From Dictyostelium discoideum (lineage: Eukaryota), in NCBI GenBank assembly GCA_000004695.1, contig CM000153.2, positions 4,480,001-4,544,000 of the forward strand: DNA of 64,000 bases, given 5' to 3'. Shown here one piece after another: positions 2,591-62,260 of the stretch. The first letter of the stretch is position 1; each line of letters begins with the position of its first letter. Below the pieces are notes generated by a model. It made no database searches, had not been told where the DNA came from, and worked only from the letters and a program-made list of their open reading frames with translations. The position numbers and the translations under genes were made by a program.

Positions 2591-5205
2591 TTAAATACGA
2601 AAATAAGCATTAATATTATAATTGGGATTATTATTACTAAAATTATGGAGAAATGGTTTGTTACTGCTACTAAATTGATAGATATCACTCCCACCATTTT
2701 TACTTGAATCACTATTATTACTTTCATTACTACTATCACTACTATTATTACTATTACTATTACTATTACTATCTATTACTATTACTATTGCTATTACTAC
2801 TACTATTACTACTATTACTACTATTACTACAAATTTTATTTTGATTATACAAAGGATAATAATTACCCTCCATTTATGATTGTTTTGGATTACTAACAAT
2901 ATAGTGTTATTATTATTAATTGTACATATTATATCTGATGGTGGATAGCATTTAATTTCAAGTTGAGTATTTGAAATGATATCGCATGGTTTATTATTGA
3001 TGGTTACTGATAAATCTATAAATATTACCGAACCAACCATTTAATATTATAGAATACCAAGTTCAGTTTGTTGTAGTTGTTGTGAATTAACTTGATGATT
3101 TGGTGTTAAACACATTGAATCAATCCATTGATTTGTACAATTACACTGACCATTGATTTGATTACAAATACCTTGATTACATCCTAATCCATTATTACAT
3201 TCACATACACCATTTATATAATTACAGAAACTACCATTTTCATCATTACAATCTGATGAACATTTCAATGATCTTAATTCACATTGATAACCTCTCCATT
3301 CATTTGAAAAACAATCACAAACACCCTTCACATAACTATATTCACCACTATTTTTAGCACAATTTGGAATTGGACAATTACTACCATTACAAATTTGATT
3401 CAATTTGAAATTAAAACTATTCGATACATTCATAACTTGAACTAAACAATTAATTTCTTTATTATTATTTACAATACCACCACTATTACTACCTACTTGT
3501 ATCACTGTTACCTTATTATTGATGATTTTATTTGAATTATAAAGATAACATTGAATTTGATTGAAATTACTTGATAATACTAAACAAGGTTCGTTTGAGA
3601 TTAAAACATTGATAACCGTATTATTATATGCAAAGTTTTTACCATTGATAATGAAATAATCTGAATATCTAATAACTGAATCAATTTGTGGTATGAATTC
3701 ATTATAAGCTGTAATTTCAAAAGTTCTTGGACCTTGAGGTAAATATGGAAATGTAATATTGAATCCTTTTGGCATTGGTTGAGTTGAAAAGATATTATTT
3801 TTCAATTGGAATGCTCTATTTGGTGTTATAATAGCAGTTGCAAAATTTTTATCAAACAATGCATGATTGGCGATTTACCACTTATTAAATTATTTCTAAT
3901 GTTACTAACATCAAAATTAACTTCACACCACTATCATCCATTTCTCCAGTAATTTCATTATTATATAAATAATATTCACTATGGGAAATTTAACTTGGTA
4001 ATGGAGTTTTAATACTATTGTTTTGAAATTTTATATATTTAATATTTGTCAATTTTTCATTAATATTTTTAAATTTACCTAAATTTCCATTCTTAAATTC
4101 ACTCTATAAAAAAGATTTAATCATTAATAACTTTTAAATGATTTTAATACTTTTACAATTGGTTGAATATATTTACAGTAAAAACAAATTTTTTGGTAAT
4201 CCAGAAAATGGAAAATCACCATCAATATTGAATAATTTACCTGAACTATTAAATTAATAGAAAAAAAGTTATAAAAGGAGTTAATAAATATCTTGTTTCA
4301 TTTGGGGTAGGATCTCATTCAATACTTTAAATAACCTTTTAATTTAACCAAAACTTACATTGATACCTCATTTTCATAATTATTTGATAAATTAATAAAG
4401 GTAGGAGGCGTATCTATTTGATAAGTAATTGTACTTAATATATTGTTTTTTTTTTAAAAAAAGTTAAAATAATTGTAATAATAATAAAAAATAATGGAGA
4501 AAATAAATAAAAAATATTTACAGACCAGTATTTTTATTTCAGCTGGTATTTCACTTAAAGCAATAGGGAAGGGATATATTTGAGTTTTGTCTGAAGGTGT
4601 TATTGAAAATGCAATTACATTTGAAAATTTTGAAAAAATTGAAAATGAATATATATCAGCTCCACCTAAAAGTGTGAGTTGACTTTTTTTTATTAAAAAA
4701 TGTTTTTTTTTTAAATAATTATTAATATTTATAACATTGGGTAAAAAAAAAAAAAAAAAAAAAAATATATATATAAAAAATAATAAAAAAAAAAAAAATT
4801 TGTAAATACAAACAAAATAGATAAATTAATGTTTTTCACTGATGGTATATTATGAGAATATATGTTATAAATATTGAAAATGGCAGTCGTGGTATCATTC
4901 AAGTCATTTATAAAATTTATTTTATATTTTGGTTTTTGAGTTTGGTTTTTCAACTGAAATTTTTGAACATTTAAAAAACTTGAGAAATATATATTTAGTG
5001 GTCCAGAAAGGTACAATAATAAACTTAATGATTCTACTTGTATAATTTTATTGAACCCAATTTCCACATCAAATAATGATGAATTACCAATAAATAATGA
5101 CATACATGTTAAAGTATTTGGAAATTTTCCTATTAAAAAATTATTTTCAACTTTAAATAAATCTATATTACTGATTTATATTATTTACATATTAGATTTA
5201 TGTAT

Positions 5206-5241
<36 letters not shown>

Positions 5242-6110
5242 TTTTTTTTTTTTTTCAAAAACACTTACATAGAATTTAATGATGAAAAACATTGAAAATC
5301 AATTGGAGATGAACCATTCTAATACCTTCAACAGCTGTTGAACATTATCACAATAATTTATATAAATGATTTATTAGTTAAATAAAATTAGTTAAAAATA
5401 CTCGCCTAAATTATTGCTCATGTTTTATCAGAATCTTGTAATAGAAAAATAAAATAAAATTAAATAAATAAATATATATAAATAAAAATAAAGTAATAAG
5501 TTGATGTTATCGACAATATCTAAAATTTATTATACATGTTTTTTTATTATTGAAAATTTTTACTTATTATATTTGAGATTTAAAATTATGTTTATGAGTT
5601 TTTCAATCGACATTAAAAACTCACCACGTGACTTTTTCCCACCTAGGTGAGAAAAGTCTAATTATATAAACATAAATTATTTTAGTTTGTGAGCGAGATT
5701 GTATCTAATTTAAAATCTTGATAAAACATAATTTTATTGTAACAATTTAATTATTACATAATTATATTACAACAAACAGCTCCCTTGTTATTACATATGA
5801 AATGGTTATATGGATCAAGTGCTACAGCACTACAAAAACTATATCCATTGAATGTTGTATCCAATGGGTGCTCTTTAGAAGCCTGATTAATTTTATTAAA
5901 TAAATGTAATGTACAATTATCTTTTTACAAATGAAAAGGATTGTTGAGATTATTAATTTTCTACTCAAAAAAAAAAAAAAAAAAAAAAAAATTAATTACA
6001 AACTTACACTCTGATTCAATGAGTTGATTTTGTGAATTAACTAAATTTTTATTTTGACATATTATAAATAAAAGTAAAAGAATAATACTATTTAAAACTC
6101 CCATGTTCAT
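2591..6110 (-). pseudogene. LRR-EGF-TM receptor-like family member, copy D, disrupted.
   Basis: The minus ATG at 6110 gives MNMGVLNSIILLLLFIICQNKNLVNSQNQLIESEC, a signal peptide. The EGF-module ORF 3047..3859 is nearly identical to copy C. The TM-containing C-terminal part 2591..3040 is in a different frame, so there is a frameshift at about 3040-3047. The LRR region around 3860-3960 shows a further frameshift and deletion (TGEMDDSGVKLILMLVTLEII then stop, against TGEMDDSWCSITFDISNNLIGGKAPS in the intact copies). Exon 2 is split by a roughly 440 bp insertion at 5337-5774, and an in-frame stop sits at about 5310. Confidence 0.6.
5337..5774. mobile_element. Candidate non-autonomous DNA transposon (MITE-like) inserted into exon 2 of copy D.
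   Basis: The insert is flanked by a 7 bp direct repeat AACAGCT at 5330-5336 and 5775-5781. Its ends are imperfect inverted repeats: the left end reads GTTGAACATTATCACAATAATT, and the reverse complement of the right end reads TGTTGTAATATAATTATGTAATAATT. Inside is a near-perfect 29 bp palindrome GACTTTTTCCCACCTAGGTGAGAAAAGTC at 5630-5658, next to a CACGTG palindrome. Homologous exon-2 sequence in copies A, B and C is uninterrupted. Confidence 0.35.
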
Positions 6111-6595
6111 TATAAAAAAAAAAAAAAATAAATAAATAAAAATAAAAAAAAAAATAAAAAAAATAATAACAATAAATAGATTTTTTACAAAACCATAAAA
6201 AAACCAAAAATAAAAAAAAAAAAAAAAAAAACCAGATCGATAGTTTTGATATTTTTACAATTTTTTTAAATTAATGTGGCAAATAAAAATTTTATTTTAT
6301 TTTATTTTATTTTGTTTTTTTTTTAAAAAATGTTAATATTCTTTTTTTTTTTTTTTTTGGGTGAACCCCTAAATTATTGTTGGCAGATATTTAGTATTTT
6401 ATTATAATTTTTTTTTTTTTTTTTTTTTAAATCCCTATCATTTAGATTTAAAACACACATTTTATTTTAAAATTTACTTTTTATAAATAAAATTTTTTTT
6501 TTATTATTTTTCATTATTATTATTATTATTATTATTATAATTATTATTATCTTATTATTATTATTATTTATTATTATTATTACAATTTCAATGCA

Positions 6596-7325
6596 TTAAA
6601 TGATATAATGAAAATAATTATTGATATCCATTGTTGATTCATAGTATTTTTCATTTTCTTTCCATTCCAATACATTAAATGATTTCAATTCTCGAAGTTG
6701 TTGTTGAGAAATTGATGGCTGATTAATTTTTTTAATTTTAAAATTATTGCCTAATCCCAATAACATTAAGTCCGATTTACTAACTCTACCAATTGTTATT
6801 TTTTCATTTGCAATTGACATCAAAGAAATATTGGATAAACTTACAAACGGTAATTTTTTTTTTATTATTAAAATTTAAAAATCATATTAATTTAAAATTA
6901 ATACAATTAAGTAATACAAGTAGATTTATATGCACTTGAAAATAATTTTAATTGTAGATTGGATACACTTGAAAATAATTTTATTAATATTAAAAAAGGT
7001 ATTATTTTACAATTATTATAAATATTTGTTTTTTACTTTATTTATTTATATATAATTTATTTACTGGATTTATTTTACTATCTATTCATTTATAGCAATT
7101 GCAAATGAAAAAATAACAATTAGTAGAGTTAGTAAATCGGACTTAATGTTATTGGGATTAGGCAATAATTTTAAAATTAAAAAAATTAATCAGCCATCAA
7201 TTTCTCAACAACAACTTCAAGAATAAAAATCATTTTATGTATTCGAATGTAAAGAAAATGAAAAATACTATAAATCCACAATGGATATCAATAATTATTT
7301 TCATTATATCATTGATCAAGAAATT
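6596..7325. repeat. Long-armed inverted repeat (foldback-type structure). Arms are about 230 bp at about 6596-6826 and 7095-7325, with a spacer of about 268 bp.
   Basis: Six-frame ORF 6596..6823 on the minus strand and the plus-strand stretch at about 7100-7320 translate to the same peptide (IANEKITI[GS]RVSKSDLMLLGLGNNFKIKKINQPSISQQQL...EKYY[EK]STMDINNYFHYII). The two arms are therefore reverse complements at roughly 90 percent identity. Identity stops at the palindromic GCAATTGC on the inner side. The outer ends share TTTCAAT...AATGATATAATGAAAATAATTATTG. The structure lies in the 1.5 kb intergenic region between copy D and copy C. It has no counterpart between copies A and B or between C and A. 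Confidence 0.6.
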
Positions 7326-7638
7326 GAAAATATTGAAAATATATACTTGTCTAATATTTCAAATCAACATACATATATTATGTTGAAAATCTTTCAAATA
7401 TCGAATTTGATAAAGTTTATCTTGGTTTTGAAGTTAAATCAACATAGCCGAATTAATTGCAATTACAAGAAAATCAAACGGTTGCACCCAATTCTCCAGG
7501 TTTCAACAAATTTTATTGATAATTATATATTTTCATTTGGGATAATGAAGGTAATGTAAATTGGGGTTTAAATTAAAAAAAAAAAAAAAGTTAAAAATAA
7601 AAACGTTTAAAACAAAATAATAGAGATGTGTATTATTT

Positions 7639-11127
<3,489 letters not shown>

Positions 11128-15366: not shown

Positions 15367-17240
15367 TTAAAATTTAATATCTGTTTCTTCCAACTCTATG
15401 AAAATTTTTTTTTTATCTTTAAATGTGTTTCTAATTTTTACTTTGCATTGATTACTTTTAATAGCTAAAACTAAAAGGATTATTAAAATTACAGATGAAA
15501 TTAAAATTAATATTAAAATTAAAATATTTTTTCTGGAAAATTTTGGATTTTGAGCATCCTCCTTATTCTCACCATTAATACCATCGCTACTACTATTACT
15601 ACTATTACTACTACTACTACTACTACCATTATTAATACACACGCTAATACCATCTAAAGGTGTTGGGTTATAAAATCCACTCCAATGAACATTGTTTTGA
15701 ACAACTGATAATTCCAGATTATTATTATTATATTGGTAACAATAGATGTCTGACGGATAACATTCGACCATATAGTCAGAATCTGCAACAATGTCACATT
15801 CTATTTGATTTACTTTAATAGTTAGATCATTTCGAAAAATTTCACTACCAAACCAACCATTTAATATTAATAGATTACCAAGAGCACCTCGTTTAATATC
15901 TTGTGAGGTAACCATAGTATTAGGTATATTACAATTTGAAGCAGTCCATTGAATAGTACAATTACATTGACCAAATAAATAATCACAAATTCCACCATTA
16001 CTACAACCTAATCCTTCATTACATAGTCTACCACTACAATCATCGAATATTCTATTTTCATTACATTCGCATTTACCATTAATATTATTACAAATACCAC
16101 CACCATCATTATTACTACAATCTGATGAGCATTTCAATGGTTTTTGTTCACATTGATAACCTCTCCATTCATTTGAAAAACAATCACAAACTCCACTCTC
16201 TTTATTATATACACCTCCATTTTTTATATTACACACTGGAACTGGACAATTACTACCATTACAAATTTGATTCAATTTGAAATTAAAACTATTCGATACA
16301 TTCATAACTTGAACTAAACAATTAATTTCTTTATTATTATTTACAATACCACCACTATTACTACTACTTGTATCACTGTTACCATTATTATTATTGATGA
16401 TTTTATTTGAATTATAAAGATAACATTGAATTTGATTGAAATTACTTGATAATACTAAACAAGGTTCGTTTGAGATTAAAACATTGATAACCGTATTATT
16501 ATATGCAAAGTATTTACCATTGATAATGAAATAATCTGAATATCTAATAACTGAATCAATTTGTGGTATGAATTCATTATAAGCTGTAATTTCAAAAGTT
16601 CTTGAACCTTGTGGTAAATATGGAAATGTAATATTGAATCCTTTTGGCATTGGACCAGTTACTCTACTATTCTTTGTAATTTCAAATAATTTATTTCGAA
16701 TTTTTATATATTTTACCCATAAATTTGGATTATCAAATTTGAATGATTTACCAAAACCAAGATCTCTACCATATAGCATCAATGATTTAGTTTGATTATC
16801 ATATGATAGATTTAGTTCAATAGTAGTACAATCTTCTAAATGGTTAATATCTAAATTTGTGAATCTATTACCATTAACAATTGCACTAGTAATTGGATTA
16901 AGGTAATGACAAACTACACATGATGGTGCTTTACCACCAATTAAATTATTACTAATATCGAAAGTTATTGAACACCAACTATCATCCATTTCACCTGTTA
17001 ATTTATTATCATTTAAATATAACTCAAGTAAAACATCCATTGATTTAATAAAAGATGATGTTGGTAATTTACTGGTTAAACCATTAAATGATAAATCTAT
17101 TATATTTGTTTTCTCTTTGAAAATATTAAAATTGATTACACTTATATTTCCATTTTTCAATTGACTTTTGAAAAAAAAAAAATTAAAATAAAAAAAAAAT
17201 TAGTATTTTTATACTATTATTATATTTATCTTGTGTTTTA

Positions 17241-26468: not shown

Positions 26469-30076
<3,608 letters not shown>

Positions 30077-36770: not shown

Positions 36771-36809
36771 TATTTAAATTATACAATCTTTTTTATAATT
36801 TTATTATTA

Positions 36810-36931
<122 letters not shown>

Positions 36932-38429
36932 TTTATTTTTGTTGTTGTTGTTGTTGTTTAAATGTATACTACTAATAAAATTTTTTTTTTTTTTTTTTAA
37001 TTCTTTTTAATTGAAACTATTATGAGAAATTTTAATAAAAAAAAAAAATTTCGTTGATAAATAATAAAATACTATTATTACTATTACTATTTCTATTATT
37101 TATTTATAATTAAATATTATTATTATTATTATTATTACAATTATTATTATTATTATTTTATTTTTATTTTAATTTTATTTTAATTTTATTTTAATTTTTT
37201 ATTTTTATTTTATTTTTATTTGGTATTTATTATAAAACTGTTATTATATCTGTTATCTAAAAATACAAATATTGGTATTAATATTAAATTTTTTTTTTTT
37301 TTTTTTTATGGTTTGTGTGTTTTATTAATATTAAGTTTTTTTTTTTTTTTTTATGGTTTGTGTGTTTTATTTTCTTTTAAAAAAGATCCTTTTTTTTTAA
37401 AAAAAAAAAAAAAAAAAATCAAATACAAAATATATTTATATATACACTTCATATTTATTATAGCAAATATTATTTAAAATAAAAAATATAAAAAAATATA
37501 AAAAAAGTTTATTCTTTTATACTTACAATATAATAATTGAGATATAAATTATATCAAATTTTTTGTATTTTAAATGTTTTTGAAGAGTGTTTTCAACAAC
37601 TAATTTTTTGAAAAAAAAAATAAAAAAAAAAAAATAAAAATAAAAATAAAAAAAAAAAATATAAAAAAAATAAAAAAATAAAAAAAAAAAAAGAAATTTC
37701 GTTTTGCCAACAATTGAAAACTTTTTAGATATTTATAACGACAAAATGTCCCATTAGACCCCATTTTTTTTTAATTAATTTTTTTATTTTTTTTTTTTTT
37801 TTATTGTAATGGATAAAAAAAAAAAAAAAAAAAAAAAAAAGATATTTGTAAATTTTTTTTTTTTTAATAGGAAAGATGTTGTGTTTATTTAAATATTTAA
37901 TAATTTTTTTAACTATTAATAAAGTTTAAAGAAATCATCACTTTTTTTTATTTTTTTTTATTTTTTTTTTTTTATTGTTTTTATTATTATATTTTTTTTA
38001 TTATTTTTATTTTAGTTTTTATTTTTTTTATTGATTAGTTCCCCCACCCAATATTTGGATTTTTTTTTTTTTTTTTTTCTTTAAAAAAAAAAAAAAAACT
38101 TTAATTTTGAAAAATTATTTTTTTTGGAAATTCCTAAAGAAACCCTTGTAAATTTTTTTATTTTTTTTTTTTTTTTTTTTTATTTTTTTTTATTTTTTGA
38201 ATATCCTAGTTTTTTTTTTTGTTTTGTTTTATAAATTTAATAAAAGGGTTAATTTTTGTATATTTAATAGAAATGAAATACAAATTTCATATGCAATTTT
38301 TTTTTTTTTAAAATTTTTTTTTTTTTTTTTATTTTTTTTTATATTTTTCTTTTTTATTTTTTTTTTTTTTTATTTTTTTATTTTCCCAACCTACGACAAA
38401 CGATTGTGGAAAAAAAAAAAAAAAAAAAA

Positions 38430-59811: not shown

Positions 59812-61359
59812 CTTAAACTCTGGCCATATATGAATTTTCTTTCTTTTATTTTAATCCTTTTAATTTTTTTTTTTTTTTAATTTTTAACCAGCAGTCTCTC
59901 CTTTTTTATTTTTTTTTAATTTTTTTTTTTAATAAATCAACATTTTGAAATTTAAATTTTATCTAAAAAGATAGTGGAAAAATAATTAAAAAAACAATTA
60001 AAAAATCCAATTTATTATTTCATAAAATAACAAAAAAATTGGTGGTTATCCTCCTTTACCTCTTTTATAATTTTTAAAAATTTCCTCTTTTATTATTAAA
60101 AAAATATTATTGGTATAAAAAACAAAAATTAGAACCCCCAGTTGCTTAATTTGTACACCTCATTTGATATCCCCATTAAAAATGATGGGATGTTGGTAGT
60201 TTAGACAAAAATCTTTTTAGAAAAATTATAGAAAAACGATTCTATTTATTAATACAAGATGTTTTAATTATAGATAAAAATTATAATTTTTTACAGGTAG
60301 AATTATTATAAAATTTAAAAATAGAATTTTAAATAAAAAAAAACTTTGATTTAAGAATTAATTATCAAATTTTTTATTTCAGTTTAATTAATATTAAATA
60401 ATACAGGTTTATTTAAATTATTTAAATTATTTAAACAATTTAAAAAAAAAAAAAAAAAAAAAATTAGTTTTTTTAACAATATTTTAACTTTTAAAATTAA
60501 TGTATTGGATTAAAGAAATTTTTAATTTTTAAAAAAAAACAATAAAACATAGTAATTTTAAAAATAATAATAATTTTAATAAAAATAATAAAAATAAAGA
60601 AATTTGGTTAAATTATTTTTGAACTAAAAATAACTCACAAAAAAAAATATAAAAAAAAAAAAAACAAGATAATACTAGAAAAAAGATATATCTATGATTT
60701 TTATTAAAAGTTGGGATTTACAATGTTTGATATTGTGGGGTAGTAAAATAATATGCAATTCTATGGGAAGTGGTGTAATTTAATGATTTTTCATTAAATA
60801 TTTCACAATTAAATTTTTTAATAGATTCTGTTTAAAAATTTGTTATTATTGTTGTTGTTTTTGTTGTGTTTAAAGATATTAAAGATTCTTTATTGTTATT
60901 TTAAAATAATTAGTTTCAATAAAGTAGCACATTTTCACATAATAATTATTCTGGTTTGTTATTTCAGGAAATACTCACTGAATAACATAATACGATATTG
61001 GTTTTACTTTTTTTTTAATTATTTTATTTTTTTTTGGTTTTTTAAATTTGTTTGGATTTTTAAAATAAAAATTTAAATCTATTGCTAATGTTTACAATAT
61101 TAATGTTTCCAATTTTTAATTTTTAATTTTTAATTTCCAATTATTTATATTGTTTTATTTTCTTTTTTTTTTTATTTATTTTTTCTTTTTGGTTTTTTTT
61201 TTAATTTAATAATTATTCTTTTTCTCTTGATTTGTTTTAATTCTTTGATAAAAAAGTTGGAATGACAAAAATAAATGTGCCCCCCAAAGAATTGAATTTA
61301 TTGTCGGATTTCTTACTTTAAAATTTGAATTTTTAATAACTATTTAATATATAAAATAA

Positions 61360-61740
<381 letters not shown>

Positions 61741-62260
61741 AATAATAATAATTTTAAAATTAATATGCACAAAAATAATTCACCATATATATTTATGTCT
61801 ATTAAATACTTAAAACTTATTTCCCGATTGATTTTCATTGTTTAAAAAAATAATAAAAATAAAATAAATTAAAATAATATATTTTTAAAATCCATTTATT
61901 TATATCTATTTATCTCTTTTGATTAAATTTGTTATTGTTTATATATAAATAATAAAAAATAAATGTTTATTTTTATTTTTATTTTTTTTTTTATTTATGT
62001 AGTTGTGTTCGTATATATCTAAAAGTTAAAAAGAAAATAAATTAAATAATTTTATTGTACCGGGAATATGTTGATTTTCTTGTATTTTTATATTGTATTT
62101 TTATATTGTATTTTTATATTGTATTTTTATATTGTATTTTTATATTCTAATATTTTTTATATTGTTTTTTGATTTTTAATTTGTTGTTTTTATTATATTT
62201 GTGCACATATATATATGTTGTATTATTTTTTTTTTTTTTTTTGTTTTTTTTTTTTTAAAA

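Follow-up and report, generated by a model that had tools for sequence, protein, structure and literature searches.

We found that a long inverted repeat between two genes of a tandem array in Dictyostelium discoideum is most probably a structural scar inside a decaying, unprocessed pseudogene of the DDB_G0287051 family – an assessment that takes in the history we propose for it below. The repeat lies within a 64-kb stretch of DNA (the window), which was analyzed at its full length. Its right arm and the sequence between the arms belong to a plus-strand copy of the gene, and its left arm is a reversed copy of a piece of the right-arm exon, which bears out an earlier suggestion of a reverse-complement duplication. 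Unprocessed duplicated pseudogenes are recognized by homology to the parent gene that includes introns and by disabling lesions, and both were found. The repeat is real, differs between strains, and is decaying by deletions. From its sequence, we infer that this relic has no present function.

A repeat search of the window placed the arms at 6599-6827 and 7085-7313 – 229 nt each, 94% complementary (13 of 229 positions mismatched), with 257 nt between them. Over the gene-derived part of the arms (6599-6816 against 7096-7313), 209 of 218 positions are identical (95.9%), and gapped BLAST lengthens the match to 6562-6816 and 7096-7345 at 92% identity. A first-pass annotation of the same DNA, made without database searches, had described an inverted repeat in this intergenic region, between array genes named D and C, with arms about 90% identical around a 268-bp spacer. 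The repeat is there and its arms are long and similar, though closer to each other than that estimate; the spacer figure was about right, at 257-279 nt depending on how the arms are defined. No other long inverted repeat was found in the 64 kb apart from matches between low-complexity (AAT)n/(ATT)n tracts. Such tracts are very long at 7773-8160, 28220-28490, 36790-37040, 61350-61780, and many other sites, code for poly-Asn inside array genes in some cases (~40 N in gene C), and explain every other long inverted repeat reported in the window.

The host spacer separates two members of a five-copy tandem array of minus-strand genes for ComC-like LRR/TIG/EGF membrane proteins. Unit spacing in the array is 5138 nt at the repeat versus 3747 and 3990 nt elsewhere, and the spacer is ~1.3 kb longer than the others. 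Lenient blastn between the array spacers traced array homology to near 6231, which leaves ~6240-7620 as additional DNA; low-complexity matches dominate this comparison, so the boundary is a rough one. When 6560-7620 was compared by BLAST with the whole window, it matched itself and its own other arm and nothing else, in agreement with the first-pass observation that only one of the four inter-copy spacers holds the repeat. The window has a G+C content of ~20%, contains long runs of single nucleotides and of (ATT)n, and encodes proteins that match D. discoideum. Between the arms of the repeat, G+C is 13%, as against 22-24% in the arms themselves, which fits the reading of the spacer as 5' exons and introns of the gene that is set out below.

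A composite of the arm's reading frame and its continuation matched five proteins in a protein search (E 1e-38 to 1e-48), all of the DDB_G0287051 family. All five are annotated as 'hypothetical proteins', come from D. discoideum or D. cf. discoideum, and include DDB_G0287051 of strain AX4. A HMMER search over 1.84 billion cluster representatives returned five relatives only, all from Dictyostelium, of which four – from D. discoideum, D. cf. discoideum, and D. firmibasis – are true family members. The family has no Pfam match, an AlphaFold model has a mean pLDDT of 29 and is unusable, and we found no mention of DDB_G0287051 in the literature searched. The protein matches indicate that the arms derive from a real, lineage-restricted orphan gene. 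The 75-amino-acid open reading frame, previously dismissed as a mere by-product of reverse-complement duplication, is on this evidence genuine coding sequence of the DDB_G0287051 family, and arms once proposed to belong to a candidate mobile element match a host gene family instead.

The parent gene is on the same chromosome, at a distance of ~750 kb in the assembly to which the window corresponds. For comparison, we used four loci with intact family members (L001, L002, L003, and L008), of which L008 is a paralog from the assembly matching the window that was reached via cluster member P0036. Copy number and location of the family differ between close strains (L001 10001-14533; L003 7006-10651; L002 9691-11046; L008 6001-7067). 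One strain has two tandem copies at a Snf7/GH65 locus, one diverged at its 3' end and one truncated at its 5' end; another has fragments and one copy there, and in D. cf. discoideum the copy lies elsewhere, with a mitochondrial carrier gene on one side and citrate synthase on the other. The ComC-like array, with the relic, is a further location, and the gene unit of ~1.1 kb has thus been duplicated to several places.

The plus strand reads through the repeat as a gene in its native order. Comparing full-length family proteins with the window by tblastn placed all coding segments on the plus strand, in the proper sequence (6816-6848, 6914-6997, and 7095 onward), with matches in shifted frames reaching 7564. 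Nucleotide alignments run colinearly between 6819-7372 and the intact gene, through exons and both introns (88% identity to L001, 85-91% to L008), and excising two canonical GT...AG introns (6850-6923 and 6999-7095) brings back the N-terminal sequence of the family in frame. Alignment and conceptual splicing thus show that the repeat 'spacer' comprises four parts of the relic, namely what remains of exon 1, then intron 1, exon 2, and intron 2. Against the intact paralogs, the left arm aligns in the reverse orientation, at 90-91% nucleotide identity by blastn, and by tblastn it has 82-85% amino acid identity to the family proteins P0001 (from AX4) and P0003. The features are collected in Table 1.

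Table 1. Features of the relic and its surroundings (positions are those of the window)
Feature	Position	Strand	Basis and remarks
(ATT)n microsatellite adjoining outer end of left arm	6492-6585	.	Maybe the relic's original 5' flank; low-complexity, unprovable
Segment flanked by direct repeat CAAT(G/A)CATTAAATGAT	6588-6683	.	Repeat copies at 6588-6604 and 6668-6683; ~80 nt between copies missing in L004 and L007
Open 75-codon frame (MMSIANEKITIGRVSKSDLMLLGLGNNFKIKK...HYII)	6596-6823	-	ORF list; aligned with family
Left arm	6599-6827 (gene-derived 6599-6816)	-	Inverted partial copy of first ~218 nt of exon 3; repeat search, blastn, tblastn
Exon 1 remnant (DIKEILDKLTN)	6816-6849	+	tblastn, alignment to L001, conceptual splicing
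Intron 1, GT...AG, 74 nt	6850-6923	+	Colinear with intron of intact gene; splicing restores frame
Exon 2 (DLYALENNFNCRLDTLENNFINIKK)	6924-6998	+	tblastn, alignment, splicing
Intron 2, GT...AG, 97 nt	6999-7095	+	Alignment, splicing
Right arm (start of exon 3), 218 nt	7096-7313 (repeat-search arm 7085-7313)	+	In-frame TAA at 7224-7226
Remainder of exon 3, outside repeat	7314-7582	+	Homology to intact gene continues, with deletions and frameshifts
Large 3' exon of ComC-like array gene C (context)	7639-9252	-	Stop codon ~60 nt from end of relic

The plus-strand copy is, by its sequence, a dead gene. The exon 1 remnant begins at about codon 8, its ATG is gone, and it meets the left arm's inner end at CAATTG-AC-ATCAAAG. 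Besides the TAA in the right arm, the copy has frameshifts, has lost its last ~40 codons, and, relative to the intact gene, shows deletions of 103 nt after 7372 and of 25 nt near 7444. The proposal that both arms carry the same 75-amino-acid ORF consequently survives for the left arm, which is open; the right arm holds the stop codon, and its frame runs past the arm.

To follow the repeat beyond the window, we took the orthologous spacer from four assemblies (L004, L005, L006, and L007), anchored on the neighboring array gene. L006 (GCA_054883475.1, a chromosome-level assembly) is 99.9% identical to the window over 5700-8000, with 2 differences in 2301 nt, and has an identical repeat. L007 (~91% identity to the window) has a variant repeat whose ungapped arms are 110 nt long and 95% identical. 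Its plus-strand copy, with TTG in place of ATG at the start-codon position, extends from 3 nt before that position to ~30 nt short of the stop and keeps the 103 nt deleted in the window; its inverted copy corresponds to gene positions 596 to 408 and includes 38 nt of intron 2. In L004 (GCA_054859385.1, ~92% identity to the window), the plus-strand copy is gone and no inverted repeat is left; all that survives is a remnant of 146-151 nt that runs colinear with the left arm. Position and outer junction motif (TTACAATT) are common to the window, L007, and L004. Absence of the inversion from other assemblies had been named beforehand as evidence against the first-pass reading; we found the inversion in L006 and, as a variant, in L007, but L004 retains only the remnant.

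The D. citrinum spacer between the same anchors (L005) is 445 nt long and holds no trace of a DDB_G0287051-family gene. At ~13360-13500 of L005, there is a short stray fragment that resembles coding sequence of the array gene (…CSHQWIDSIINTPNHQV…GELGIQLVFNGWF…), which suggests that array spacers have gathered gene fragments more than once. As a further observation on the relation between window and assemblies, the exon at 15370-17163 is 100% identical to ACTFIT_005390 (GCA_054883475.1) and 97.5% identical to AX4 DDB_G0286437; L006, from the same assembly as ACTFIT_005390, still differs from the window at 2 of 2301 spacer positions.

These comparisons bear on whether the repeat could be an assembly artefact, namely a chimeric fold-back read. 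Inverted duplications do arise artefactually in some library and long-read methods. However, the same structure is present in the separate assembly L006 and a diverged variant in L007, and the two arms differ at 13 positions, which a fold-back artefact would not give. We attach practically no credence to an artefact.

A foldback-type transposon, or a MITE with long terminal inverted repeats, inserted in the spacer was among the first-pass candidates. Such an element would account for long inverted arms flanking an AT-rich center, for their presence in one of four spacers only, and for the differences between strains. The arms are, however, exon sequence of a host gene, and the center consists of the 5' exons and introns of the same gene in normal order. 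Gene homology carries on colinearly beyond the right 'terminus', through 7314-7372 and then to ~7565, so the outer end of the right arm is not a terminus. We sought direct repeats of 2-12 nt at 6598/7314 and found none that would mark a target-site duplication. Neither the 64-kb window nor eight related loci hold a further copy, and at L001, L002, L003, and L008, which carry intact family members, the gene copies lie in a single orientation with no inverted partner. The haplotypes, moreover, differ by ragged internal deletions with different breakpoints, not by excision at the arm ends. We therefore reject the transposon, which is highly improbable on this evidence.

Two routes through RNA were also considered and rejected. 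A processed pseudogene (retrocopy) is ruled out by the introns of 74 and 97 nt kept in the plus-strand copy and by the intron sequence in the inverted copy of L007. In the window, the inner end of the left arm lies exactly at the start of exon 3, as it would if the left arm had been copied from cDNA; this is ruled out in turn, as the inverted copy in L007 reaches 38 nt into intron 2. The intron 2 sequence in L007 implies that the duplication was made from genomic DNA, and that the exon-boundary junction seen in the window is a secondary deletion of ~60 nt.

We propose the following history for the pseudogene. In the D. discoideum lineage, a genomic copy of the gene of ~1.1 kb, introns included, would have entered the spacer that separates two ComC-like array genes. 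A piece of ~190-250 nt, made up of the last part of intron 2 and the first part of exon 3, would later have been re-copied in reverse just upstream of the copy's start codon. This inverted partial duplication occurred at the DNA level, and we think that template switching or fold-back repair is its most likely mechanism. The position and the motif shared by three D. discoideum haplotypes imply that the duplication happened once. In the window, the ~60-nt deletion across the original inner junction would have removed the ATG of the plus-strand copy, which would then also have acquired the TAA stop, two internal deletions, frameshifts, and the 3' truncation, while other strains would have taken different deletions. 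Long inverted repeats are prone to deletions, which would account for the erosion of the relic in the three deletion haplotypes observed.

Gene conversion may have kept the two arms similar. The five copies at the array locus differ pairwise at 7-13 of 139 sites (at 1 for the left copies of L007 and L004) and from the intact paralogs at 12-18 of 139; on these counts, the array copies form a clade of their own. The two arms of the window differ at 7 of 139 sites and share the derived states AGGCAAT and AAAATTAAA, both of which are absent from both L007 arms. These common derived states point to gene conversion between the arms, though selection on pairing would be expected to produce the same likeness beyond the divergence from the parent.

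The flanks offer a further comparison. An (ATT)n tract of ~200 nt immediately precedes the ATG of the intact paralog, and one of ~85 nt adjoins the outer side of the left arm in the window. This placement is compatible with an inverted piece having been set between the copy's 5' flank and its ATG, although sequence of such low complexity cannot prove it. Between the 5' flank in the window and the region upstream of the paralog, we found no homology beyond the low-complexity sequence.

Counting against a relic without function, the frame of the left arm is still open in three haplotypes – the window and the remnants in L007 and L004. We considered whether the left arm could be functional coding sequence, either as a 75-amino-acid gene or as an alternative last exon of the upstream ComC-like gene. 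An automatic gene model in L004, P0006, does splice the remnant as a terminal exon: L004 13489-13639 supplies residues 851-891 (...SD-RVSKSDLMLLGLENNFKTKK...), displacing the transmembrane C-terminus of the window ortholog. Yet the arm corresponds to an internal, truncated segment of the family protein, its ATG (codon 2) sits in junction sequence and is not the family's own start, and an open frame is unsurprising at ~4-10% divergence from coding sequence. The intron equivalent to that of P0006 would be ~1 kb in the window, which is very long for Dictyostelium, and the loss of the transmembrane C-terminus gives P0006 the appearance of an annotation artefact. A coding role is very unlikely on these grounds. 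The open frame is probably inherited coding sequence and not a gene, and the terminal exon of P0006 is probably an annotation artefact caused by the relic.

Array gene D (2591-3859, minus strand), downstream of the repeat, shows its own signs of decay. It reads TELGIL*Y*MVGSVIFIDLS, with two in-frame stops, where gene C has ...TELGILLILNGWFGNIHIDLS, and its long ORF is also shortened upstream relative to that of C. Gene D is probably a pseudogene in the window strain. The L004 gene model for this region is a 1250-amino-acid fusion.

The repeat could also be read as a source of hairpin RNA or endogenous siRNA, in which a duplex of ~220 bp, formed by a transcript that runs through both arms, would be cut to 21-nt siRNAs that act in trans on DDB_G0287051. 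With the Dicer-like cleavage this envisages, the relic would be a pseudogene-derived hairpin RNA (hpRNA) or a proto-miRNA locus of the 'inverted duplication' type. The first-pass annotation had noted that the region could form a long hairpin, and folding of 6590-7335 agrees: the predicted structure has a free energy of -323.9 kcal/mol and a z-score of -31.5 against shuffled sequences. In the left arm, 34 of 209 21-mers are identical to the intact paralog L008, as are 28 of 209 in the right arm, and the arms are closer to each other than either is to the parent gene. Poly-T tracts, which lie just upstream of Dictyostelium transcription start sites (PMC6161686), occur on the plus strand 170-260 nt upstream of the left arm, with lengths of 17 and 21 nt. 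RNAi is active in D. discoideum, and 21-nt RNAs are plentiful, with ~30% of them originating between genes (PMC6161686; PMC2175303). Precedents include pseudogene-derived endo-siRNAs (PMC3616710, PMC2708354) and the 'inverted duplication model' of miRNA birth in plants (PMC3237417), whose envisaged precursors the relic resembles.

Against this reading, the structure is not conserved: the L004 strain lacks the right arm and the spacer, and the L007 strain has shorter arms. Gene conversion explains the similarity of the arms equally well, and the putative target, DDB_G0287051, goes unmentioned in the literature searched. The repeat has no Rfam match, with nothing overlapping 6599-7313 at E<=1, and across 5500-8500 only a sub-threshold chance match that falls outside the repeat. 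In the literature searched for small RNAs from hairpins or pseudogenes in Dictyostelium, we found no locus-level data for the region. We regard a source of hairpin RNA as unlikely. Slightly more doubtful is a specific version of it, in which the relic would be a young, strain-polymorphic hairpin-RNA gene with a read-through or poly-T-driven transcript whose siRNAs tune DDB_G0287051. If true, this would be an amoebozoan case of a small-RNA locus born by inverted duplication of its target and still segregating between strains.

For the decaying pseudogene that we favor, the importance is mainly one of annotation. The locus is best described as a DDB_G0287051-family pseudogene with an inverted partial duplication, and not as a transposon or a 75-amino-acid gene; in another strain, an automatic gene model already counts the remnant among its exons. 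Across the three D. discoideum haplotypes, there is also a small natural series in the erosion of a long inverted repeat – a junction deletion, a deletion bounded by direct repeats, and the loss of one arm with the spacer. Should small RNAs map to the repeat, it would offer an example of a hairpin-RNA locus at its birth, in an amoeba amenable to genetics and with repeat-free natural strains as controls. This case is not among annotated proteins, nor did we find it in the literature searched.

Comparison with known systems places the relic among gene duplicates. It resembles foldback transposons and long-TIR MITEs in having long inverted arms around a short AT-rich center, but it lacks element termini and a target-site duplication, and its arms and center are a host gene in native exon-intron order. 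Like a retrocopy, it is a decayed gene copy at an ectopic site with an A-run where homology ends (7573-7587); unlike one, it keeps both introns, and A-runs are everywhere in this genome. With hpRNA and proto-miRNA loci, of which the Drosophila hpRNAs are a further example, it shares an inverted repeat that is long, near-perfect, and derived from part of a protein-coding gene, as well as a paralogous potential target elsewhere with which it has 21-mers in common. Those loci are defined by transcription, Dicer processing, and target regulation, all of which are hypothetical for the relic, and the structure of the relic is not conserved among strains. The closest match is an unprocessed pseudogene with an internal inverted partial duplication: the relic shares the intron-containing homology to a parent gene, the lesions, and the strain-variable decay, and nothing essential sets it apart.
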